Sequence record: MT446423.1
Strand: one strand, 5' to 3'
DNA: 64,000 bases
Source of the DNA: Escherichia virus TH58
Part shown: piece after piece, positions 394 through 44,539 of the stretch
Position numbering within the stretch: the stretch's first letter is position 1
Layout of the letters: each line of letters opens with the position of its first letter
The notes under the pieces: model-generated
Databases searched by the model: none
What the model was told of the DNA's origin: nothing
The model's input: only the letters and a program-made list of their open reading frames with translations
Program-made: the position numbers and the translations under genes

Positions 394-422
394 GTTTACT
401 TCTCCTCTAGATGTGTTACTAT
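394..422 (+). promoter_or_regulatory. T4 early-type promoter (GTTTAC-N17-TACTAT with upstream TGt)
   Basis: GTTTAC 394-399, TACTAT 417-422, followed by GAGGAG RBS and ATG 451. Confidence 0.5.
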
Positions 423-450
423 AGACCTATCAAAACAAGAGGAGAATATT

Positions 451-678
451 ATGAAACGTCAAATCATTAAAAATGTAACTACTGATTCAAACATCGATGA
501 GTTTGAAGATGTTCTGTTTAATCCTGATTTAGTTGTTGTACAGAAAAACTGGACCGAATTTTTATGCTACACCGAAGTGGTTTACGTTTACGAAAAACTC
601 GGTGATGAAATGCCTATCTACGGTATCTTCCGTGAAATCACTGAAAACGGTACAACTTATTGGAAGGAAACTTACTAA
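451..678 (+). CDS. hypothetical small early protein (75 aa)
   Basis: Track ORF 382-678 trimmed to first ATG with RBS (aagaGGAGaatatt-ATG). Confidence 0.5.
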
Positions 679-3596: not shown

Positions 3597-3625
3597 AAGC
3601 TCCTGAAGGAGCTTCATTTTAATTT
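3597..3625 (+). terminator. terminator-like hairpin AAGCTCC-tgaa-GGAGCTT + U-rich tract
   Basis: 7-bp stem, 4-nt loop, followed by cATTTTaATTTTT. Confidence 0.5.
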
Positions 3626-8260: not shown

Positions 8261-8548
8261 ATGATTCATCCATTTGACGTATCAGAATCCAAAATTGCTA
8301 ATCTTCGTGGTCATCATAAGTGTAAATCAGTTTATTGTGCTAAATTGGTAAAACATCCTGGCGATGCACACTACGGTTGGTTAGAATGCGACGAAGTTGT
8401 TATTGAAATCCCACCGGTAGATGCAGAATATCTTGAAGAAGGTGACCGCATTTATTTTGGCGAACTACACATCAGAGGTATCTATGGTAAAGACGAACTT
8501 GGGACTGTTGAGACTGAAGAATCTTCCGACATTTATCCTGTCGAATGA
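8261..8548 (+). CDS. hypothetical protein (95 aa)
   Basis: Track ORF 8222-8548 begins inside the terminator hairpin; trimmed to ATG 8261 with AGGGG RBS. Confidence 0.5.
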   Translation: MIHPFDVSESKIANLRGHHKCKSVYCAKLVKHPGDAHYGWLECDEVVIEIPPVDAEYLEEGDRIYFGELHIRGIYGKDELGTVETEESSDIYPVE

Positions 8549-8564
8549 GTTTTTGACTAGTGAA

Positions 8565-9041
8565 ATGAAGGTGAAGATTGCTGACACTGCTCGGTATTCC
8601 CTGAGCCAAAATCCTGACCAAAACAAAGAAGATGTAGTTCGACGTTGTAAGGTTGCGGTCTTTGCAGAGTATGTAGTAGCAAATTGGCTAGACGGATATG
8701 TTAATAAAGGTATTGAAGATGTAGAAGACCCGTACACGTATGCATGGGACGTGTTAGCCCATCCCAAATATTGTGGAATTCGTGTAGAAGTCAAGACACA
8801 CCAGATAGATTCTAAATGGATTTCTGTTACCACAGGATACAGTGGTGATTATCCGGGTGGCAACGGAATCAATATAGGGCCCTTCTTGAACCATCGAGTC
8901 GCAGATTGCATTATTATATTAGATGTCAAAGAAACCTCACCTGACGTCTTCTCTTATTCTATAAAGTTCGTGGGAGACCATGAAGACCTAAAGAAAATCG
9001 TCCGCAAGAGCAACTACAATGGGTGGTATCTTCAACTTTAA
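8565..9041 (+). CDS. hypothetical protein (158 aa), occupies the denB position but identity not established
   Basis: Track ORF 8421-9041 overlaps upstream gene; trimmed to ATG 8565. Confidence 0.5.
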   Translation: MKVKIADTARYSLSQNPDQNKEDVVRRCKVAVFAEYVVANWLDGYVNKGIEDVEDPYTYAWDVLAHPKYCGIRVEVKTHQIDSKWISVTTGYSGDYPGGNGINIGPFLNHRVADCIIILDVKETSPDVFSYSIKFVGDHEDLKKIVRKSNYNGWYLQL

Positions 9042-9053
9042 TTTCATAAAAGT

Positions 9054-9090
9054 GTTTACAACTAAGTAGGACTATGATATAGTAGTCCTA
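9054..9090 (+). promoter_or_regulatory. early-type promoter with -10 inside an inverted repeat
   Basis: GTTTAC 9054-9059, TGa-TATAGT 9075-9083, inverted repeat TAGGACTA 9067-9074 / TAGTCCTA 9083-9090. Confidence 0.5.
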
Positions 9091-9109
9091 TCTAAAAGAG
9101 GATAACATC

Positions 9110-9373
9110 ATGAAATTTAAATTTTTCTACGCAAAACATAAAGTAACAGGCGAATTTGTTTCAATGTACAACACTGCAGATGACGAAGGGATGATTTATA
9201 CCCATTTGGGACTATCTCATTGGGACTCAGACGTGCCTTATATGTCATCTGAAGCCGAAATAACTCGTCTGGTTAATGGACATATGAACGACCATTTTAG
9301 TGTTATTCTTTCTAAAGACCTTAAAGAGGTTATCAACAAAGGATATATGGAACTCGCGGAAGTTGAGATATGA
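9110..9373 (+). CDS. hypothetical protein (87 aa)
   Basis: ORF track; RBS AAGAGGA upstream. Confidence 0.55.
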   Translation: MKFKFFYAKHKVTGEFVSMYNTADDEGMIYTHLGLSHWDSDVPYMSSEAEITRLVNGHMNDHFSVILSKDLKEVINKGYMELAEVEI

Positions 9374-9456
9374 GCTCTAAAATGTGGATCGGAATATGGT
9401 TGCTTAGTATCCCTATGATTTGTATAATATTTTCAATTGCATTGAGGTACTTATGA
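9370..9456 (+). CDS. hydrophobic micro-ORF, 28 aa (MSSKMWIGIWLLSIPMICIIFSIALRYL)
   Basis: Not in ORF track; start overlaps upstream stop (ATGA); predicted single transmembrane helix. Confidence 0.3.
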   Translation: MSSKMWIGIWLLSIPMICIIFSIALRYL

Positions 9457-9563
9457 AAAATGCACTTCTTATTGTACTAAGAACAATTTGCGATACAGGT
9501 TTTTACATCGCATGTTCGTTCACCGGAACATGGTTGGCTTTAACATATTTTAATGTAATTTAA
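9453..9563 (+). CDS. hydrophobic micro-ORF, 36 aa (MKNALLIVLRTICDTGFYIACSFTGTWLALTYFNVI)
   Basis: Not in ORF track; start overlaps previous micro-ORF stop (ATGA). Confidence 0.3.
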   Translation: MKNALLIVLRTICDTGFYIACSFTGTWLALTYFNVI

Positions 9564-9565
9564 TT

Positions 9566-9603
9566 GTTTACATCAAGGTAGGATTATGGTATAGTAGTCC
9601 TAC
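9566..9603 (+). promoter_or_regulatory. early-type promoter with -10 inside an inverted repeat
   Basis: GTTTAC 9566-9571, TGg-TATAGT 9587-9595, inverted repeat GTAGGATTA 9578-9586 / TAGTCCTAC 9595-9603 (one G-T position). Confidence 0.5.
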
Positions 9604-9623
9604 TGAAACATGAGGAACACAAA

Positions 9624-9824
9624 ATGGCTAAGCTTTTTAAAGATGTTGAAATTGGTGAAAAATTTGTTCTGAATAATGGTCAGCAGCTTATTCGTGTAGC
9701 TTCTATCGCCGGACAAACTCATAACTGTATCGCCCCAACGTGTTGGACTCGATTCTTTATTGAAGATGATACTGAATGTTTAACTGTTGAAGAGCTTTTT
9801 GAACGTTCTGATATGGCCGAATAA
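9624..9824 (+). CDS. hypothetical protein (66 aa)
   Basis: ORF track; RBS GAGGAA upstream. Confidence 0.55.
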   Translation: MAKLFKDVEIGEKFVLNNGQQLIRVASIAGQTHNCIAPTCWTRFFIEDDTECLTVEELFERSDMAE

Positions 9825-9827
9825 AAT

Positions 9828-9862
9828 TGTACAAACTCTTGAGAGCAGAGTATAATGCTCTC
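9828..9862 (+). promoter_or_regulatory. sigma70/early-type promoter with TATAAT inside inverted repeat GAGAGCA / TGCTCTC
   Basis: TTGTAC 9828-9833, TATAAT 9851-9856, 7-bp inverted repeat 9841-9847 / 9856-9862. Confidence 0.45.
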
Positions 9863-9900
9863 ATGGATTACAAAAACATTAATCAATTGAGGAAATTAGC

Positions 9901-10347
9901 ATGTCCAAATATTTAACTCGTAAAGACCTTCTGGCAGTTGGCGGTGAAGTTGTTGCAGTAGTTCGTAATGGCGAATACGGTTCTGAAGTTTCTAAAGAGT
10001 TTCGTTCTCGTGAAGGTTTTTACTTCTTTGTTAAAGGTTCATCTGATTGGCGTCAAGTAGCAGCACGATTCTTTGTAGGACGTCAACGTTCTAAACAAGG
10101 GTTGGATGCAATTCTTTCTCACATTCGTCAAGGCCGTTCGCAACTAGCCCGTACCATGGGCACTAACAATATTGAATATGATGTAATCTTTGTTGCAGCT
10201 AAGAACATGAAACCACTGACTACTGGTTATGGTAAAGGACAATTGGCTCTAGCATTCACTCGCAATCATACATCAGAATATCAAACACTCACTGAAATGA
10301 ACCGTCTTCTGGCAGATAATTTCAAATTCATTCTGCAGAGTTACTAA
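9901..10347 (+). CDS. ndd: nucleoid disruption protein Ndd
   Basis: 148 aa; strong match to recalled T4 Ndd ([40 protein letters not shown]). Confidence 0.92.
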
Positions 10348-10354
10348 TTTATAC

Positions 10355-10386
10355 GGGCCTATTAAGTTGGCCCTTTAATTTATTTT
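10355..10386 (+). terminator. terminator-like hairpin GGGCC-N9-GGCCC + T-rich tract
   Basis: Follows ndd stop; TTTAATTTATTTTTT downstream. Confidence 0.55.
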
Positions 10387-10400
10387 TTGAGGTAATTAAA

Positions 10401-10547
10401 ATGGTAACATGGATTATTGCATTGCTGTGTTGGACGTTTTTATTCGTTAACACTTTAGTTACAGGCGAAACAACAGTATTTCAACAGGCGGTGTCACAAG
10501 GTACTTTAGCGGTCTTAGCTCTTTTTAACGTATTAAAAGGCGAGTAA
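10401..10547 (+). CDS. small membrane protein, 48 aa (ac-like position)
   Basis: Not in ORF track; own translation MVTWIIALLCWTFLFVNTLVTGETTVFQQAVSQGTLAVLALFNVLKGE; RBS GAGG upstream. Confidence 0.4.
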   Translation: MVTWIIALLCWTFLFVNTLVTGETTVFQQAVSQGTLAVLALFNVLKGE

Positions 10548-12017: not shown

Positions 12018-12093
12018 GTGCCCTAGCCTTAGGATTTCTCGGTGCAATAGCTGCACTAGTGATTTGGCTGTATTGGTTAGACAAACATGATTA

Positions 12094-12120
12094 GGGAGCT
12101 TCGGCTCCCTTTTGTGCATT
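12094..12120 (+). terminator. rho-independent terminator (GGGAGCTTCGGCTCCC + T-rich)
   Basis: Perfect stem with UUCG loop, TTTTgTgcaTTTTTTT. Confidence 0.65.
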
Positions 12121-12136
12121 TTTTTCTCACAAAACA

Positions 12137-12165
12137 GTTTACATGTGCTTCAAACATGATATTAT
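12137..12165 (+). promoter_or_regulatory. T4 early-type promoter upstream of motA
   Basis: GTTTAC 12137-12142, TATTAT 12160-12165, spacer 17. Confidence 0.5.
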
Positions 12166-12204
12166 AGACCTATCAAAACAAAACAACCAAATTGGAGAAA
12201 TAAA

Positions 12205-12837
12205 ATGTCTAAAGTTACTTACATCATCAAAGCTTCTGAAAACGCTCTGAATGAAAAAACTGCTGCAATAATGGTTTATATCATTAAGAACAACTTCACC
12301 ACTGCTGCCAATGTCCGTGAAGCTCTGGAAGCAGAATACAATGCATCAGTTGTTAACTCTAACATTGGTGTATTGATTAAGAAAGGTTTAGTCGAAAAAT
12401 CAGGTGATGGACTTGTAGCAACAGGCGAAGCAATGGATATTATCCAAAAAGCCGCAGACCTCTTTGCCCAAGAAAATGCTCCAGAACTTCTTCAGAAACG
12501 TAACACCAGAAAAGCACGTGGAGTTACTCCTGAAATGCATGAATTAGCAAACTTTGTTTTTGAAAATATTAAAGATAAAGTTGAAGTTAAAGAAATTGGC
12601 GAAAACCGTAGTAACTTAGAAGTTCGATTTGCAAAACGAGTTCTAGGTATTCGCCAGATCGAAATTCGTCGAGATGGTTCTCTTAGAATCTTTGCGTACA
12701 ACATGTCAGAAACTGAATCAAAGCTGTTTACTTCTCTTGAAAATGATGTTAAGATTAAAATCGGTGGTAAATATACTTACATTGACTTCCCTAATGTGTC
12801 CAAAGAAATCATTACCCTTGTAACTAACGTACTGTGA
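12205..12837 (+). CDS. motA: middle-transcription activator MotA
   Basis: 210 aa; N-terminus MSKVTYIIKAS and NSNIGVLIKKGLVEKSGDGL match recalled T4 MotA. Confidence 0.93.
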   Translation: MSKVTYIIKASENALNEKTAAIMVYIIKNNFTTAANVREALEAEYNASVVNSNIGVLIKKGLVEKSGDGLVATGEAMDIIQKAADLFAQENAPELLQKRNTRKARGVTPEMHELANFVFENIKDKVEVKEIGENRSNLEVRFAKRVLGIRQIEIRRDGSLRIFAYNMSETESKLFTSLENDVKIKIGGKYTYIDFPNVSKEIITLVTNVL

Positions 12838-13177: not shown

Positions 13178-13467
13178 ATATAAAGACAATCGAAGAGCAG
13201 TATAAAGATTACTCTAAGTTGGTTCATTCAGTAAAAACAATCAGCATTATTAATCTTCAGGTTAATAATTTAACTCTTAATTTTGGTAATGAACTGGCTA
13301 AATATTGTTGTATTATTAATACAAATCTAACACCAGTTGATATGTATGGTTCACGCCAAACTGCTGATATCAAGATTTCAGGTGAATCACTGAATGATGT
13401 ATTAGATACCGCCGCCAAGATTCGAGCTTTCTGTGCAGTTAACAATTATGAGGCCTTAATCAAATGA
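13174..13467 (+). CDS. hypothetical early protein (97 aa)
   Basis: ORF track; start overlaps upstream stop (ATGA). Confidence 0.55.
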
Positions 13468-16508: not shown

Positions 16509-19500
16509 TTAGGCTAAGCGAACGATATAGTTAAAAGCAATGTTTTTAACAGTGTTTTCGGTGTTACCGGTGCTGTTAACAGTAATTGTATGGCCATGAG
16601 CAGCAATAGAAAACGTGTGAGTATGTGAACCTATAGCCACTGTATGGTTATGTGTACCGATATCAGTATAGTGACTATGTTCTGGAGCGACTGATGTAGT
16701 ACCTGACCACGTGTGTGAGTGTAGACCATCCTCGTTAGTCCATGTCGTTGCTGTCTGACCGGAACTGGATGCTGCAAATCTACCGGACTGAACGTTAGCG
16801 TTGTTACCAAGTGAAGCAGTGTGTGCGTGCCTACCGTCAGTACTCGTTGTACCGGATACTGTATGAGTATGTGCACCAGCGGTGTTAGTATGTTTACGGC
16901 CTAGATCTGTTGTACTAACAGTTTTAGTCCCTAAATCAGTAGCGCTTGTAGTACCAGACAAAGCAGTAGTGGATGCAGAAGCAATATGGGTATGGGACTT
17001 AATACCATCAGCTTCAGCACTCAACACTGCGCGACCGCTCGGTTTACCCTTAATAGTCTGCCCTCGCATATCAGGAATTACGCCACTAGGATACGCAACA
17101 GCTAGCTTTGGATATGCAGACTTATCAAAGGTCTGGCCTTCCATTAAAGCAAATCCGGCTGGAACTGAATCACTCGGCCATGGAATCGGAGCACCGACCG
17201 GATAAGGTATCTGGGCATCAGAATACATCATATACACTTGTCCGAGTATATGGCCTGCAGGTAATTCTTCTACTGGTGTTTGGGCGCCGCTGTTAATCCC
17301 AACAACTGACACGGTGGAGTTGGCTGAGCACTCATATTCAACCACCAACGAGTTTGCATAGGCCCCAACATATACATAAACATCATACACATCACCGGAG
17401 GTATTCATGGTAGCAATATTAGTGAAACCCTTATCGGTACGAGACCATAAAGTAGCGTTAATGGCTTTAGGATTATTATTGCCTGTACGAAGAACAATTT
17501 CTGTAATAGTAGCTTGTTCCGGAGAATTGGCATTAAATCCACTACCACCCATTACTTTAAAGCTTGCAGTCCCTACAGATTGTGGAATATTTACTGTAGC
17601 AAATTTATACCATCCAGCGCTTGCGCCTGCGGCACTCCAACCACCCGTATTAACCTTACGGTCTAAAGTGGTGTTCAAGTTAGAAAAGTTACCAGTACCG
17701 CCAGTAATATTACCATCAGTTCCTAATTTAGTATTTCCTATTTTAAGAGGCTTAGTAATATCGACAGTATCAGAGTTTAATGCAATACCATGGGCGTAGG
17801 TGTAATTATGCATACGAACAATGTTTCCACCATCACCAATACCTACATACCATTTTGTAACATCTGCTTTGCGTCCTTGGATGAAGTTAGAAGACTCTTG
17901 TGTTGGAGCATTTATTCTAATAGCATCGGCGGCAGTATTAACTGTTATACGCTGAGATGCTGTAGTACCTGATGTATCTACTTTAAACTTGCCCGCACCA
18001 ATATCAACAACGTGATTCATAGAAACTGCGCCGGTGCCTAACTCAATACTAAACGGGCGAAGGTTGTTTATTTCACCATTTTCCCCTTCATTTTCGTTAG
18101 TTGGGATAATATGTAATGATGTTTCTGAGCGTCGGAAAATGGCACCATAACGAGAGTTCCAAATTCTTAATGCATTGATGATGCCACCGATTTTAACTGG
18201 TCCATTTGCAGTTAAATTGTTGGTAAGTAAATTACCAAATGTCACAGTTTGACCTTCACCGACGCCAAGGTTATTACGGGCAGCAGCTACAGAAGTCGCT
18301 CCAGTACCACCTAAATTAATCGGTTGAACACCAGATACAACTTCCTGCCATGCAGTCCACGATCCGCCTTGTCCGTAGCGAACATATACGCCTAAAGCAT
18401 TACCGCTCTTTGTAGTAAAGGTCTGCTTACATGACCAGTCGCTATCGGAAACTTTACGCAAAGACAGAACTTCGAGAACAAAGTTTCCATCAGAGGTAGG
18501 TTTGTTCAATATATTAGAACCACCACCAGAAGATGTACATTTATACAGCTTACGAGTACCTAAATCTGAACGTCTAATAATCAGGCTATTAAGGTCAATA
18601 GTCTGGTCAGTAATATCAACTGCTTCTTCAACACCACGGTAAGTTTGCTTAAAAACTAAATCACCTTCTACTTCAAGACCGTTAGGTTTAATTAGAATAT
18701 ACTTACTAGGAGATGGAGTAACAACTGTAGGTTGATAACCAAATTGCACGTGTCCTTCAGGAGTAATTTTAAGCATTGCTACACCAGCGCCATCTCCAAT
18801 TTTACGAGCAAGAGTTAATCTGCTATACTTATCAGATTCCTCTGAACCTAAATCAACAAACGTTCCGTTGGTGTTTTCGACTTTTAAGTTAGCGTTAATA
18901 GTCAAGTTACCGGTCATGGTATCGCCGGTTTTACTTACTTTCTTATTATCACCAGCAACAATGTCATTTTTAATAGAAGTCAAATAGTTGTTAAGGTTAC
19001 CACCAAACAATGAACCTGACGTAATGTTACCGTCTTTGGTTAGCATCGCAGCCCCGCCGATTTTAACTGCTACAGGAACCTCAAATTGGCCATCAGAGCG
19101 GAAACTGTACTCGCCGGCAGAAACACCACCTGTGGTTTTTGCCCGAATACGTACAGTGCCTAGGTCTGAGGTGTTTGGAGTAGCCCAAATCACACCACGT
19201 TCTATACCATTGTTATTTTCAAACCAAACATGTGTATTCGCATCGACATCTGGAGCACGAGCATAATAAGAACCAGACCGAGCATAATAAGTTGTTGCAA
19301 TTATAGCGGCTCCAGAATTAATACCGCCCGTGGTATTAATACCAGCTAGAGTCTGAACATACGCACCATTTAATGTTAATTTACCGTTGATAGTCACATC
19401 ACCATCGACTTGCCCACCTTTAGCGAAGCCAAGGTCGATAATTTGACCTGCATCATCTTTAGTAAAAATTGTTCTATCTTTTAAGTTTATAGCCAATTCA

Positions 19501-19588: not shown

Positions 19589-20254
19589 TTAATAATAGCC
19601 GAAATCTTGAACAGAATCCTTAATTACGATTTGGTCAAATCGTGGAACATGCGAAGGTTGAGATGCAGGATTCTGTGAGAAAAAGTTTGGCGCTGTTAAG
19701 TTACCTGTCATGGTATCACCTGACCGTAGCACCCTGGAATTTGCGTTATCTGTAACAATATTTATTCGTCCATCAACGTAATCTTTTCTTGTGAGATCAT
19801 TCGCTGCTATAGGAGCAGTCGCATCACTTCTTACTTGACCAGCTGCCGACACAACACCTTTTGTATTAATATCACCATTACGTGCATTAATTACAACAGT
19901 TCGGGCTGCTGAACCCTGTGATGATTTAAAACCAATGCCATTCCACGAAACAATATCGATATTTGCTACAGCAAAAGTAGCATTATCACCGTTACCTGGA
20001 TAAATACCACATGGGTTTGTATTGTTTACAGCATATGGTACTTGAACACCAGCATTAAATGTTACCTTTGATGCATAAGTACCGCCATTAGCTTTAGAAA
20101 CGAAATCGTTATCAGCAGCTTGTGGTTTATTATATTCTGAATAAAGTTTAAACGTTTTATACAGGACGTCATCACCTGCCGGCATTAAAGGGAAATTACC
20201 TTGATGCCATATAACGGCACCACCAGCTGTACTACCAGCTTTTAAATCGGCCAT
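19589..20254 (-). CDS. 36: long tail fiber distal connector gp36
   Basis: 221 aa, same length as T4 gp36; [23 protein letters not shown]. Confidence 0.9.
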
Positions 20255-20293: not shown

Positions 20294-20311
20294 GGGAGAC
20301 CGAAGTCTCCC
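20294..20311 (-). terminator. terminator hairpin GGGAGACTTCGGTCTCCC after gene 35
   Basis: On minus strand followed by AUUUUUGU. Confidence 0.5.
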
Positions 20312-28616: not shown

Positions 28617-28638
28617 GGGAGACTTCGGTCTCCCTTTT
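28617..28638 (+). terminator. rho-independent terminator (GGGAGACTTCGGTCTCCC + TTTT)
   Basis: Perfect stem with UUCG loop. Confidence 0.7.
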
Positions 28639-28723: not shown

Positions 28724-29128
28724 ATGGAAATCGGAAAATCTTATATCATTAACCCTTTATTTAAAGACGACTTTGTTCAAGAAGCACCACATAATAACGC
28801 TAAGATGTTAAAACTGATTGAACTCCATGGGCCTAGTTTTGTTGTAAACGGAATGGAACCTGATTATGATAGCGATACGTCAAACGTAGTAAGTGTAACT
28901 ATGGAAGATGGTACTGTATGTTCTGCCGGTGGTGAAATTGAAACTTATTTTGAGATTTATCCCGACGAGTTTAAATACTTTATTGAGTACTTTACTGAGG
29001 TAGATTTAGTAAAGCCTCAACCTACTAACGAAGGTATAACTTTAGGTGTAACAAAAATCCATTGTATCGTAGATGAAACCAACGTCGACGAAATCATCAA
29101 ACTTTTGCAAAAAACTTTTAAAAAGTAA
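28724..29128 (+). CDS. hypothetical protein (134 aa), frd.x-region
   Basis: ORF track; RBS GAGGAAA. Confidence 0.6.
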   Translation: MEIGKSYIINPLFKDDFVQEAPHNNAKMLKLIELHGPSFVVNGMEPDYDSDTSNVVSVTMEDGTVCSAGGEIETYFEIYPDEFKYFIEYFTEVDLVKPQPTNEGITLGVTKIHCIVDETNVDEIIKLLQKTFKK

Positions 29129-29139
29129 TATACAATCAG

Positions 29140-29165
29140 ATAGGGTTATGTTATAGTAGCCCTAT
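29140..29165 (+). promoter_or_regulatory. -10-like TGt-TATAGT embedded in inverted repeat ATAGGGTT / AGCCCTAT
   Basis: Same architecture as 9067-9090 and 9578-9603; -35 element weak. Confidence 0.4.
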
Positions 29166-29192
29166 CAAATCAAAAGTGAAGCGGAGAATAAA

Positions 29193-34946: not shown

Positions 34947-35357
34947 ATGAAAGATATCGCCGCCGAATATTCCTTTATTAAATATACAGAATTGGAGCTA
35001 TTAGAAGATGCAACAATTAAAACAGTTGATGTCCCTAATAAGAAAAATGTCATATACGCTATTGCTATAGATGACGAACTTGTGTATATTGGTAAAACCA
35101 AGAATTTAAAGAAACGCATTAACTATTATCGAACAGCCATAAATCGAAAAGACCAGACTTCAGATTCAAGAAAATCACTTATGATTTTGGATGCCTTAAT
35201 GCAAGGCAAAAAGGTTGAATTCTGGGCCCGCCAATGTTTTGACCTTTCAGTCACCAACGAACTTGGTTCAATGACCATCGCAACAATGGACCTTGAAGAA
35301 CCGCTTTTTATCAAAAAGTTCAACCCGCCTTGGAATATCCAACATAAGAAAAAGTAG
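34947..35357 (+). CDS. denA: endonuclease II (GIY-YIG family)
   Basis: 136 aa; GIY-YIG core VIYAIAIDDELVYIGKTKNLKKRINYY; matches recalled T4 EndoII. Confidence 0.9.
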   Translation: MKDIAAEYSFIKYTELELLEDATIKTVDVPNKKNVIYAIAIDDELVYIGKTKNLKKRINYYRTAINRKDQTSDSRKSLMILDALMQGKKVEFWARQCFDLSVTNELGSMTIATMDLEEPLFIKKFNPPWNIQHKKK

Positions 35358-37731: not shown

Positions 37732-37946
37732 CTAAAGAACAGCATGAATACATTAAAGGGCTTATCTATGAATCTGAAATGGCGGCTATGATTTATGGGC
37801 GACAGATTCAACGATTAGAATCTTTGCCTCCGACTAATGACCGCTTGTTAGTTCAGTCTCGTGCTAATCTGAAAAATGAATATCAGAATAAGTGGGCAGT
37901 AGCTACTAAAGCTCTTCATGAGTATATTGGATCTTTAGTAAAATAG
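37722..37946 (+). CDS. hypothetical protein (74 aa)
   Basis: ORF track. Confidence 0.5.
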   Translation: MPMTKEQHEYIKGLIYESEMAAMIYGRQIQRLESLPPTNDRLLVQSRANLKNEYQNKWAVATKALHEYIGSLVK

Positions 37947-37981
37947 TTTACAAACTCTCGGGAGCGGAGTATAATGCTCCT
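37946..37981 (+). promoter_or_regulatory. early-type promoter with TATAAT inside inverted repeat GGGAGC / GCTCCT
   Basis: GTTTAC 37946-37951, TATAAT 37970-37975; core GAGTATAATGCTC shared with 9848-9860. Confidence 0.45.
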
Positions 37982-40071: not shown

Positions 40072-40101
40072 GTTTACAACATGGTGGAGTTGTGATACTA
40101 T
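40072..40101 (+). promoter_or_regulatory. T4 early-type promoter
   Basis: GTTTAC 40072-40077, TGa-TACTAT 40093-40101. Confidence 0.5.
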
Positions 40102-40129
40102 AACTCTACCAACAAATGAGGAAATAGAA

Positions 40130-43121: not shown

Positions 43122-43148
43122 GTTAAATCGAGGAGCCGTCGAACTGTT

Positions 43149-43177
43149 TGATTAATGATTTGCGAATCATTATAGTT
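43149..43177 (+). promoter_or_regulatory. sigma70-like promoter TTGATT-N17-TATAGT with palindrome AATGATT-tgcg-AATCATT in spacer
   Basis: Read directly; lies in unusually long 264-bp non-coding stretch. Confidence 0.4.
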
Positions 43178-43385
43178 TTAAGACCTCAACAGTTTTACGG
43201 TGTACCTCTTGAATGTATTTTGTACTATCACGCGTCAGAAAAAGGTTATCTGTCTAAGTCGTGGTCGGTATGATGACGGGTTTATGGTTATCCTGTCGTT
43301 AAATATCCAAAAACCTATGTTCCCCTCGAGGGCTTGCGCAGGCAATGTCAATAAGTCCTGCATTTTCATTTAAAGAGAATTTATA

Positions 43386-43565: not shown

Positions 43566-43570
43566 TTTTA

Positions 43571-43593
43571 GGGAGACCGAAGTCTCCCTTTTG
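43571..43593 (+). terminator. rho-independent terminator (GGGAGACCGAAGTCTCCC + TTTT)
   Basis: Perfect 7-bp stem and T-run. Confidence 0.7.
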
Positions 43594-44068: not shown

Positions 44069-44108
44069 GTTTACTTTGGTACAGGTTATGTTATTATAGA
44101 CCTGTACC
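44069..44108 (+). promoter_or_regulatory. early-type promoter; -10 region bracketed by 8-bp inverted repeat GGTACAGG / CCTGTACC
   Basis: GTTTAC 44069-44074, TATTAT 44092-44097, inverted repeat 44078-44085 / 44101-44108. Confidence 0.45.
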
Positions 44109-44138
44109 AACAAACAACTTAAACATCTGGAGAATAAA

Positions 44139-44504: not shown

Positions 44505-44510
44505 TTTAAC

Positions 44511-44528
44511 TGGGAGCCGAAGCTCCCA
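44511..44528 (+). other. RNA hairpin TGGGAGCCGAAGCTCCCA without U-tract
   Basis: Perfect 7-bp stem with 4-nt loop, followed by GAGGAAATT-ATG of next gene rather than a T-run. Confidence 0.4.
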
Positions 44529-44539
44529 GTGAGGAAATT

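Follow-up and report, generated by a model that had tools for sequence, protein, structure and literature searches.

The inverted repeats that enclose -10 hexamers in the window, the whole 64,000-nucleotide stretch of Escherichia virus TH58 (MT446423.1) analysed here, are copies of the promoter-early stem-loop (PeSL) cassette, an ordinary and already described composite signal of T4-like phages (Arbiol 2010, PMC2839356; Comeau 2014, PMC4122927). Taken as a whole, they are best explained, with fair probability, as T-even-type PeSLs in which an early promoter is overlaid by a stem-loop of the read-through RNA. The window derives from an RB69/JS09-like T-even phage (Mosigvirus), sequence comparison showing Mosigvirus phages to be 98-99% identical to it over positions 8500-10500. 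All genes around the modules lie on the + strand, and the genes upstream of them (denB, ndd.5-like and ndd.1-like) share the strand of the modules with no intervening terminator, so that read-through RNA would contain both arms of each repeat. The modules and the gene cassettes that they flank are as follows.

9034-9109, + strand: module 1, denB/orf87 intergenic, predicted early promoter with a -10-spanning hairpin; A-rich upstream region, -35 GTTTAC 9054-9059, TGn 9075-9077, -10 TATAGT 9078-9083; arms GTAGGACTAT 9066-9075 and GTAGTCCTAT 9082-9091, loop 9076-9081; predicted start about 9090, SD 9096-9102, ATG 9110
9110-9563, + strand: gene cassette between modules 1 and 2, orf87 and two small ORFs
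9110-9373, + strand: orf87, first gene in this cassette
about 9373-9457 and 9454-9563, + strand: two small ndd.6/ndd.5-like membrane-peptide ORFs, after orf87
9546-9623, + strand: module 2, ndd.5-like/ndd.1-like intergenic, predicted early promoter with a -10-spanning hairpin; A-rich upstream region, -35 9566-9571, TGn 9587-9589, -10 TATAGT 9590-9595; arms GGTAGGATTAT 9577-9587 and GTAGTCCTACT 9594-9604 with an internal U·G pair; SD 9612-9617, ATG 9624
9624-9824, + strand: gene cassette between module 2 and the module at 9827, one ndd.1-like ORF of 66 aa
9827-9900, + strand: module at 9827, ndd.1-like/ndd intergenic; -35-like TTGTAC/TGTACA 9827-9833, -10 TATAAT 9851-9856; hairpin 9840-9863 with perfect 8-bp arms TGAGAGCA 9840-9847 and TGCTCTCA 9856-9863
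29128-29192, + strand: module 3, positional counterpart of the T4 promoter before frd.2; degenerate -35 ATATAC 29128-29133, TGn, -10 TATAGT 29152-29157; arms 29139-29149 and 29156-29166; SD GGAG 29183-29186, ATG 29193
37946-37981, + strand: module at 37946; -35 GTTTAC 37946-37951, -10 TATAAT 37970-37975; hairpin 37960-37981 with arms GGGAGCG 37960-37966 and TGCTCCT 37975-37981
40072-40111, + strand: module at 40072, counterpart of T4 Pe133295 between cd.2 and cd.3; -35 40072-40077, -10 TACTAT 40096-40101; hairpin 40082-40111, region fold -16.9 kcal/mol, internal G·U pair
44069-44110, + strand: module at 44069, counterpart of the T4 promoter before 30.7; -35 44069-44074, -10 TATTAT 44092-44097; hairpin 44075-44110 with 11-12 bp arms 44075-44086 and 44098-44109

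Modules 1 and 2 share the arrangement GTTTAC-N18-TATAGT with TGn. The stems of modules 1-3 are 10-11 bp long and the -10 box occupies the loop and right arm of the hairpin, the inner three stem pairs (TAT/GTA) being derived from the extended -10 region. The distance from the -10 box to the SD/ATG is 19-27 nt in modules 1 and 2 and 36 nt in module 3. Three modules fall within a span of 810 bp in the denB-ndd region, and the one at 9827 has paralogues in the module at 37946 and the T4 motB promoter.

A sequence-only reading of this DNA had described repeated early-promoter modules, three in number, whose -10 sits inside an inverted repeat. This description is borne out, with UP, -35 GTTTAC, TGn and -10 in each (the -35 of module 3 being degenerate), and all three copies were confirmed by position; the family is nevertheless larger than the three real copies listed, which did not include the module at 9827, with at least four more members in the window (-10 boxes of equal architecture at 9851, 37970, 40096 and 44092). 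Two instances of the motif GTTTAC-N15-19-TATAGT are present in the window, where 0.07 would be expected, and the RNA folds of modules 1, 2 and 3 reach -13.2, -13.6 and -16.3 kcal/mol, respectively (z -3.5 to -6.3 versus shuffles). A window-wide census of + strand hairpins carrying a -10-like hexamer (at most one mismatch to TATAAT) in the loop or right arm returned six, all intergenic and upstream of an RBS. Five of these fold at or below -11.8 kcal/mol as compared with none in 60 dinucleotide shuffles, an enrichment far above the chance frequency of palindromes that the earlier reading had allowed for. The mismatch criterion of the census misses TACTAT promoters, such as that at 40072 and several in T4, and a wider survey therefore folded all GTTTAC promoters of the window and of T4, TACTAT types included. 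The T4 RefSeq/GenBank records being devoid of promoter features, T4 early promoters were inferred by pattern, and the survey covered T4 outside the late-gene stretch 78-113 kb. Across the window plus T4, the consensus is common to 46-48 similar sites, and 30 of 46 promoter regions fold at -8 kcal/mol or below with a pair spanning the -10 (mean z -1.8, p=8e-8). The inverted repeat had been considered no obvious part of the canonical T4 early promoter; this view did not hold, as the same design is found at several strong T4 early-promoter-like sites and has been published as the PeSL. Strong promoters at 12137 and 45154 have no convincing hairpin, which implies that the hairpin is dispensable for promoter function and not present at every gene boundary. 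Its placement also varies, being confined to the spacer at 35357, 36541 and 50979, upstream of the -35 at 12093, and spanning the SD elsewhere. A search of positions 8800-10100 with the Rfam 15 covariance models returned nothing at E <= 1.

The arms differ in sequence among copies (TAGGACTA, CAAGACTA, GGGAGC, TGAGAGCA and TGGTACAGGT), and two-sided changes preserve their pairing. In an alignment of seven modules from four phages, ten core pairs are paired in 7/7 sequences and both sides have changed in 9 of 15 pairs, values that were reached in none of 500 shuffles, while slid controls collapse; within the core, every one-sided change yields G·U and no cell is unpaired. A second family, B, shows swaps from G-C to C-G and from A-T to G-C. 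Hairpins are also retained, with different sequences, at promoters that occupy equivalent positions in T4 and Mosigvirus (29140 versus T4 146143; 40072 versus T4 133331). Symmetric scoring of mismatches gave 22 G·T against 8 A·C, a moderate asymmetry in which some of the counted stems are marginal, and the mean fold of the sense strand is stronger than that of the antisense strand (-11.8 versus -9.3 kcal/mol, p=1.4e-4). Folded as DNA, the hairpins attain only -3 to -5.5 kcal/mol, and those of the - strand in modules 2 and 3 shrink to stems of 6-7 bp with 14-nt loops. Together, the compensatory changes, the sense-strand G·U bias and the weakness of the DNA hairpins indicate selection of the stem-loop as a putative RNA structure.

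These observations bear on two other explanations of the symmetry. The earlier reading had assigned it to the DNA level, as a dimeric protein site or cruciform, and had pointed out that a transcript initiated at the module lacks the left arm. The latter point is correct; the former is left unsupported by the compensated variation of the arms, the G·U bias, the weak DNA hairpins and the presence of both arms in read-through RNA. It is thus highly improbable that the repeat controls the early promoter, for example in its shut-off, as an operator bound by a protein dimer or as a cruciform or hairpin recognised by a structure-specific protein. Such a site would be well placed, since a protein bound to the repeat would cover the -10 and so block RNA polymerase; TAGGRYTA arms are common to three copies, T4 early-promoter shut-off is described as 'not completely understood' (PMC3014915; PMC2988021), and a DNA-binding protein at the RB49 stem-loops was speculated upon by Arbiol et al. 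(PMC2839356). However, the half-site sequence is not conserved across copies and varies while two-sided changes keep the pairing, a poor fit to a sequence-specific dimer site, and neither the far greater frequency of G·T over A·C mismatches on the sense strand nor the variable position of the hairpin relative to the promoter favours a DNA-level site. The right arm (TATAGTAGTCYTA; TATAGTAGTCTTA) is conserved even in T4 promoters without a short hairpin, so that arm similarity is explained by promoter constraint. A dimeric-protein operator, for which conserved half-sites at a fixed promoter position were sought, was rejected as the arms differ and the position varies. Hardly credible at all is the version in which the repeats would adopt a DNA hairpin, by extrusion or capture, and a phage or host protein recognising structure and not sequence would bind them and turn off a subset of the early promoters a few minutes after infection; if true, structure-specific hairpin binding would form part of the still unexplained T-even early-promoter shut-off. 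It is also very unlikely that the hairpin is functionless, a by-product of the promoter consensus (TATAGT being the reverse complement of ACTATA) and of ancestral module duplication. Descent or conversion clearly links modules 1, 2 and 3, and the extended -10 region does supply the inner three pairs, but this explanation is at odds with the enrichment of hairpins over shuffles, the nine double-sided pairs and fully paired core of the seven-module alignment, the unrelated stem sequences at other promoters and the retention of hairpins of different sequence at equivalent T4 and Mosigvirus promoters.

Under the favoured explanation, for which we infer both promoter activity of the modules and a role of the hairpin in RNA, each element would be a compact intergenic cassette of 60-76 nt with two overlaid signals. 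One would be a very strong sigma-70 early promoter (A-rich UP, -35 GTTTAC, TGn, -10 and a conserved CTAYC start region) that fires the small early gene downstream; the other would be the stem-loop, its left arm placed in the spacer and its right arm extending from the -10 box as far as the approximate start site. A polymerase starting at the module would produce RNA without the hairpin, whereas one arriving from the co-oriented upstream gene would transcribe both arms, so that the hairpin would form in read-through RNA only. Its most likely role in that RNA is to mark or insulate the point at which the upstream transcription unit ends, possibly by attenuating transcription or making it pause, by forming a 3'-end or processing barrier, or by both means. 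Hairpin and promoter would overlap because the intergenic gap is too small for separate signals. With the right arm constrained by promoter function, the left arm would evolve to match it, which would explain why unrelated copies look alike (TAGGA...TCCTA). Since many near-identical modules of 45-85 bp are dispersed in one orientation, they would also act as homology patches, recombination between which may convert modules and insert, delete or swap the small gene cassettes that they flank.

Like intrinsic terminators, the modules would place a stem-loop in the nascent RNA at a gene end; they differ from them in the absence of a U-tract and in the modest G-C content of the stems. The tails that follow the stems of the three modules (CTAAAAGA, GAAACATG and AAATCAAA) are A-rich, no U-tract was found 3' of any -10-spanning hairpin, and a terminator scan of the + strand calls none of them. 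An intrinsic (Rho-independent) terminator, that is, a G+C-rich stem-loop followed by a U run, was therefore rejected as an identity for the elements; the missing U-tract makes efficient intrinsic termination unlikely, and canonical termination by the module stem-loops is doubtful on the sequence features. Canonical terminators of the window have a UUCG tetraloop and a T-run, and the module hairpins look different from these. One canonical terminator lies, for example, at 12093-12110, with a T-rich tail after it. Published maps of T4 transcript 3' ends or TSSs were sought, and the literature searched yielded none that could be used.

The hairpin might instead discriminate between transcripts by origin, altering the translation or decay of the downstream cistron in read-through RNA while locally started RNA stays hairpin-free, a role regarded here as unlikely. 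The left arm always lies upstream of the predicted start, which by itself sets the two RNA species apart. Of 48 early-promoter regions of T4 and the window, 16 have an SD that folding predicts to be paired in read-through RNA (<0.3 unpaired) and open in the promoter's own RNA (>0.6); swapping the upstream halves gives an expectation of 6.3 strongly sequestered cases, and 15 were observed. There is also a precedent in T4 genes e, soc, 49 and I-TevI, where hairpins with an internal promoter sequester the RBS (PMC3014915). These resemble the modules in having a promoter within the hairpin region and a structure that is present in the long read-through RNA and absent from the local RNA. However, their internal promoter is late or middle and their right arm covers the SD/AUG, whereas the hairpin of modules 1-3 ends 5-17 nt before the SD, the predicted accessibility of which changes little (0.30 versus 0.52, 0.44 versus 0.73 and 0.61 versus 0.59). 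Anti-SD pairing was rejected as a general explanation, being inapplicable to modules 1-3 and not significant in the overall swap control (0.33 versus 0.38, p=0.22). Somewhat less unlikely, though still held with little conviction, is a hairpin that serves mainly in DNA recombination, by template switching or crossing-over between modules as in PeSL mini-circles, any effect in RNA being secondary. Gene-conversion and cassette insertion/deletion junctions do fall inside modules, and the module is dispersed over genera and loci. Against this, less than 50 bp of homology suffices for homologous recombination in T4-type phages (cited in PMC2839356), so that no hairpin is required, and a recombination role would yield neither the sense-strand G·U bias nor the compensated pairing in positionally equivalent T4 and window promoters of differing sequence.

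Exchange at the modules can be followed among relatives. In OLB35, the core of module 2 has been replaced by module-1 sequence, a gene conversion. In ST0, two direct copies of the motA promoter module (about 75-85 bp) enclose an ORF cassette of about 320 bp, the window having a single copy at this place, and the homology between the window and ST0 breaks, at the module at 394, at the -10 box; only 2 of about 5 indel junctions between these two genomes lie in promoter modules. Downstream of the corresponding promoter, T4 has ndd.4 to ndd.2 and the window ndd.1, and JS10 (Dhakavirus) carries module 2 at the cd.3 locus. Module matches were found at 1009 places in 590 phage records. Among the matches listed in a scan of IMG/VR for GTTTAC-N17-19-TATAGTAG, most were unrelated viral contigs resembling chance matches, and only L053, with two matches 512 bp apart, resembled a close relative.

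The early host-takeover genes owe their transcription-unit structure to PeSL cassettes, and the exchange of small accessory genes among T4-like phages appears to take place at these joints; mapping the cassettes aids annotation and the understanding of phage genome plasticity. The basic picture of the PeSL is unchanged and holds no surprise for the T4 specialist. Hairpin promoters of a different kind occur in phage N4 (early promoters) and in plasmids (Frpo type), where the promoter is recognised only as a DNA hairpin and its elements are created by the fold. This type was discarded for the modules, in which -35, TGn and -10 stand in ordinary duplex arrangement with canonical spacing and the single-strand DNA hairpins are weak.

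The T4 early promoters, described in Hinton 2010 (PMC2988021) as 'UP/-35/TGn/-10' with extra conserved regions, resemble the modules, as do the RB69 predictions of Nolan et al. 2006 (PMC1524935), in their UP, -35 GTTTAC, TGn, -10 and further conserved positions and in their situation 5' of small early ORFs; the passages of both papers returned by term searches do not mention an inverted repeat around the -10. The PeSLs of RB49 and phi1 correspond to the modules in their order, an intergenic AT-rich region with -35, -10 and a stem-loop at or near the -10, then SD and start codon, as well as in G-T pairs within the stem, many scattered copies beside small non-essential ORFs and inter-copy recombination. 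Their stem-loop lies 'most commonly between -35 and -10 or overlapping the -10 box' (PMC2839356). They differ in having near-perfect TTGACA/TATAAT promoters, as opposed to the -35 GTTTAC here, and G(n)...C(n)-rich stems, as opposed to AT-richer stems with 3-5 G-C pairs. Reporter assays revealed promoter and terminator activity of RB49/phi1 PeSLs, with terminator-like activity demonstrated for one stem-loop with lacZ as the reporter, and the same study detected mini-circles (PMC2839356). The same authors regarded the T-even elements as analogues, not homologues, of the RB49/phi1 PeSLs, and cite weaker AT-rich stem-loops on T4-type early promoters at IP loci (Repoila et al. 1994, as cited in PMC2839356).

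The modules are also close to the PeSLs of T4 and PST (PMC4122927), which have the promoter consensus TTTACW-N17-TAYWAT and stems of the type AG(n)A-loop-TC(n)T, TAGGA...TCCTA included, and which are implicated at ndd.4/.5, an exchange in the same denB-ndd hyperplastic region. The modules share with published PeSLs an intergenic early promoter with an AT-rich upstream region and 17-18 nt spacing in the orientation of the ORFs (with the degenerate -35 of module 3), a stable stem-loop in or near the promoter (-13.2 to -16.3 kcal/mol), an SD and start codon at the 3' end of the cassette, many dispersed copies in hyperplastic regions, and indels or replacements between close relatives with junctions at the modules. 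According to the legend of the PST figure, the stem-loops lie 'just upstream of the promoter' (PMC4122927), whereas here they wrap the -10. Both PeSL papers take the stem-loop as a terminator (PMC2839356, PMC4122927); here, the absent U-tract speaks against canonical termination and puts that assumed role of T-even PeSL stem-loops in question. Neither paper mentions RB69, and RB69/JS09-like phages were not analysed there. T4 itself carries close paralogues of the window modules, and an addition to the PeSL literature is that RB69/JS09-like phages carry predicted PeSLs of the T-even type, with direct evidence of module conversion and of cassette gain or loss.

Three copies of an early promoter combined with an inverted repeat (modules 1, 2 and 3) had been placed at 9054-9090, 9566-9603 and 29140-29165 by the sequence-only reading, and all were found there. 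GTTTAC-N15-19-TATAGT occurs twice in the window against 0.07 expected, and RNA folds of the hairpins in modules 1, 2 and 3 reach -13.2, -13.6 and -16.3 kcal/mol, respectively (z -3.5 to -6.3). A census of every -10-like hexamer within the loop or right arm of a hairpin in the window returned six hairpins on the + strand, all intergenic and upstream of an RBS. Five of the six fold at -11.8 kcal/mol or below, and these five strong hairpins were matched in 0 of 60 dinucleotide shuffles, so that inverted repeats around the -10 box are far from random. The repeated promoter-hairpin observation is thus confirmed and non-random, although the family is larger than three, with additional -10-spanning hairpins in the window.

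Promoter-hairpin modules and further -10-spanning hairpins in the window
Module 1, + strand: -35 GTTTAC 9054-9059; TGn 9075-9077; -10 TATAGT 9078-9083; ATG 9110; left arm GTAGGACTAT 9066-9075; right arm GTAGTCCTAT 9082-9091
Module 2, + strand: -35 9566-9571; TGn 9587-9589; -10 9590-9595; ATG 9624; left arm 9577-9587; right arm 9594-9604
Module 3, + strand: degenerate -35 ATATAC 29128-29133; TGn present; -10 29152-29157; ATG 29193; left arm 29139-29149; right arm 29156-29166
9840-9863, + strand: further hairpin, before ndd
37960-37981: further hairpin
40082-40111: further hairpin
44075-44110: further hairpin

Modules 1 and 2 lie in the hyperplastic denB-ndd region of T-even genomes, an interval that here holds three -10-spanning hairpin modules inside 810 bp. 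Window 8500-10500 shares 98-99% identity with RB69/JS09-like T-even phages (Mosigvirus: PNJ-6, ST0, JS09, HX01), and the local gene order was taken from the ST0 annotation.

Genes around modules 1 and 2
rIIA, rIIB, + strand: preceding denB
8565-9041, + strand: denB
9110-9373, + strand: 87-codon ORF
Between the 87-codon and ndd.1-like ORFs, + strand: two tiny ndd.6/ndd.5-like ORFs
9624-9824, + strand: ndd.1-like ORF
9901-10347, + strand: ndd
After ndd, + strand: gene 52, motA

Of the 87-codon ORF, T4 keeps only some 8 codons (ATGAAAATCGCTGAGATTGAACTATGA; T4 piece L003, about 4020-3994, - strand); homology to the window ORF is recognisable at both the start and the end of this remnant, so that an internal deletion in T4 seems likely. 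The Tequatrovirus phages G8 and Kha5h match across most of this ORF. Elsewhere, the gene 37 region (distal tail fibre; 16650-19415, - strand) is only about 73% similar to ST0 or not similar at all, in line with the role of this part of the long tail fibre in determining host range.

The view that the palindrome is foreign to T4 early promoters was contradicted by a scan of 134 kb of T4, in which strong GTTTAC promoters carry hairpins embracing the -10 box.

T4 hairpins embracing the -10 box
Before dmd: 15-bp stem, -20.7 kcal/mol; core ACTATGGTATAGTAGT same as in the window modules
Before mobD.2: -19.1 kcal/mol
Before motB: -13.2 kcal/mol; paralogue of the window modules at 9851 and 37970
Before ipII: -19.6 kcal/mol
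cd.2/cd.3: -14.8 kcal/mol
Before 30.7: -11.6 kcal/mol

The window and T4 together supplied 46 GTTTAC promoter regions, whose mean fold z was -1.8 (p=8e-8); 30 of the 46 fold at -8 kcal/mol or below with a pair spanning the -10 box. According to the T4 record, a 14-bp stretch (L007, a T4 piece, 20201-20214; T4 133300-133313) was previously reported as its inverted complement, with the remark that the present version 'corrects the early promoter Pe133295'. This stretch belongs to the cd.2/cd.3 promoter hairpin, where it occupies part of the loop and inner stem; an artefact of sequencing or a genuine inversion between the inverted repeats may account for the earlier difference.

The pairing is conserved although the sequence varies. 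Seven related modules from four phages (three from the window, two from T4, and one each from JS10 and OLB35) were aligned: the ten core pairs are paired in all seven, two-sided changes occur at 9 of 15 pairs, and the observed covariation was reached by none of 500 shuffles; sliding the partner by 1-3 columns cut the paired fraction to 28-59%, from 87%. In a second family (9851, 37970 and T4 motB), A-T is exchanged for G-C and G-C for C-G, and positional equivalents keep a hairpin with different sequence (29140 vs T4 146143, 40072 vs T4 133331, and 44069 vs T4 129918). The right half TATAGTAGTCTTA is also present in two T4 promoters lacking the short hairpin, and a CTAYC start-region motif is common to all these GTTTAC-type promoters, which points to the right arm being promoter sequence. 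The likeness of arms between copies would then reflect a left arm selected to pair with it; the pattern is not as expected of a protein half-site.

The proposal that the symmetry acts at the DNA level, as a dimeric protein site or cruciform, was not supported, as four results favour a sense-strand RNA hairpin. Upstream genes are co-oriented with the modules and no terminator intervenes, so both arms are present in read-through RNA arriving from these genes. One-sided changes in the core pairs of the seven-module alignment are all G·U, with no unpaired cells, and interior G·T outnumber A·C by 22 to 8 under a scoring that treats both alike. The mean fold is -11.8 kcal/mol for the sense and -9.3 kcal/mol for the antisense strand (Wilcoxon p=1.4e-4). 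The hairpins are weak as DNA, at -3 to -5.5 kcal/mol, and the stems of modules 2 and 3 are reduced on the - strand to 6-7 bp with loops of 14 nt. The hairpin lies variously in the spacer only, upstream of the -35 box, around the -10 box, or reaching the SD, and this variable position is easier to reconcile with a signal read in RNA from upstream than with a promoter component. A structure-specific DNA-level switch linked to the unexplained early-promoter shut-off is very improbable in view of the covariation pattern of the arms, the G·U bias, and the weakness of the DNA hairpins.

As an RNA hairpin, the stem-loop does not read as a canonical terminator: the tails 3' of the stems are A-rich (CTAAAAGA, GAAACATG, AAATCAAA), and a terminator scan of the window did not call the module stem-loops on the + strand, whereas true terminators there, such as 12093-12110, combine UUCG loops with T-runs. 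It would rather be a boundary element for read-through RNA, which may pause or attenuate transcription, protect 3' ends or block processing; its overlap with the promoter probably follows from intergenic gaps of only 60-76 nt. Canonical-looking terminators lie at 12093-12110, 3597-3614, 20294-20311, 28617-28634, 43570-43589 and 44509-44530, with G+C-rich 7-9 bp stems and UUCG tetraloops (or CGAA for the opposite strand); inspection of 12093 and 3597 showed a T-rich tail, and the terminator-like stem-loop at 12093 abuts the motA promoter, placing it just upstream of the -35 box.

A second class of promoter-embedded hairpin was also observed, in which a spacer pyrimidine stretch (TTCCTC/CTCCTC) right after the -35 box pairs with the SD of the downstream gene, so that the loop contains the -10 box and start site (window 394-455; T4 NC_000866 62797, upstream of regB, 8218, 53943, 166807, 130310 and 65413). 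The predicted unpaired SD fraction is 0.33 in read-through RNA vs 0.66 in the promoter's own RNA, which starts at the module, and in 16 of 48 promoters it rises from <0.3 to >0.6. In a swap control, strongly sequestered SDs numbered 15 against 6.3 expected; the overall difference in SD accessibility was not significant. No description of such SD-pairing hairpins of early promoters was found in the literature; with them, downstream genes would be translatable only from their own early promoter. Two nearly identical T4 modules about 13 kb apart (L007 9940-9994 and 23183-23237, - strand), one before alt.-3 and one in the alc-rnlA gap, have the right half TATAGTAGTCTTAC in common with the window modules, its partner being a long-range stem to the SD (CCTCGTGTTGTGTT...AACATAACATGAGG, -17.5 kcal/mol).

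Recombination has left traces at several modules. In OLB35 (Mosigvirus utam; L129 873-968, compared with window 9020-9115 and 9532-9627), the module-2 promoter-hairpin core is overwritten by module-1 sequence between flanks that are still module-2-like, with one right-arm C-to-T change turning a G-C pair into G·U. In ST0 the motA promoter module (about 75-85 bp) is present as two direct copies (ST0 DNA L002 12125-12210 and 12446-12530, each including the first codons ATGTCTAAA) that flank an ORF cassette of about 320 bp; the extra ORF (L002 12202-12417) has its own stem-loop GGGCTTTTGAAAAAGAGCCC. Window 12125-12213 holds a single motA module and no extra ORF, a textbook case of a cassette gained or lost where promoter modules are repeated. 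The window module at 394 loses its homology to ST0 at the -10 box, and the ST0 counterpart has a different left half forming its own -10 hairpin. JS10 (Dhakavirus) has module 2 at another locus, after cd.3, and the 81-bp module has 1009 matching places in 590 phage records. Module 2 leads directly to ndd.1 in the window; in T4, ndd.4 to ndd.2 intervene. Only 2 of about 5 window-ST0 indels lie at modules. Window 13179-13461 and 43122-43224 are absent from ST0 with no obvious promoter module at their bounds, the first junction being at an overlapping stop/start TAAATGA.

Promoter-early stem-loops (PeSLs), early promoters with a stem-loop that most often lies in the spacer or overlaps the -10 box and may include G-T pairs, were defined in RB49/phi1, where promoter activity, circular excision products and, for one stem-loop, terminator-like activity in a lacZ reporter were demonstrated (Arbiol et al. 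2010, PMC2839356). The same study described analogous T-even elements, in which a T4 early promoter is combined with a weaker, AT-rich stem. RB69-type phages are mentioned neither there nor in Comeau et al. 2014 (PMC4122927); for RB69, 57 early promoters were predicted by Nolan et al. 2006, and a term search of that paper found no mention of the repeats. Comeau et al. extended the PeSL concept to T4/PST, with a TTTACW-N17-TAYWAT promoter and AG(n)A-loop-TC(n)T stems, i.e. of TAGGA...TCCTA type, and implicated the ndd.4/.5 locus (PMC4122927). The window modules are T-even-type PeSLs, an already known kind of element.
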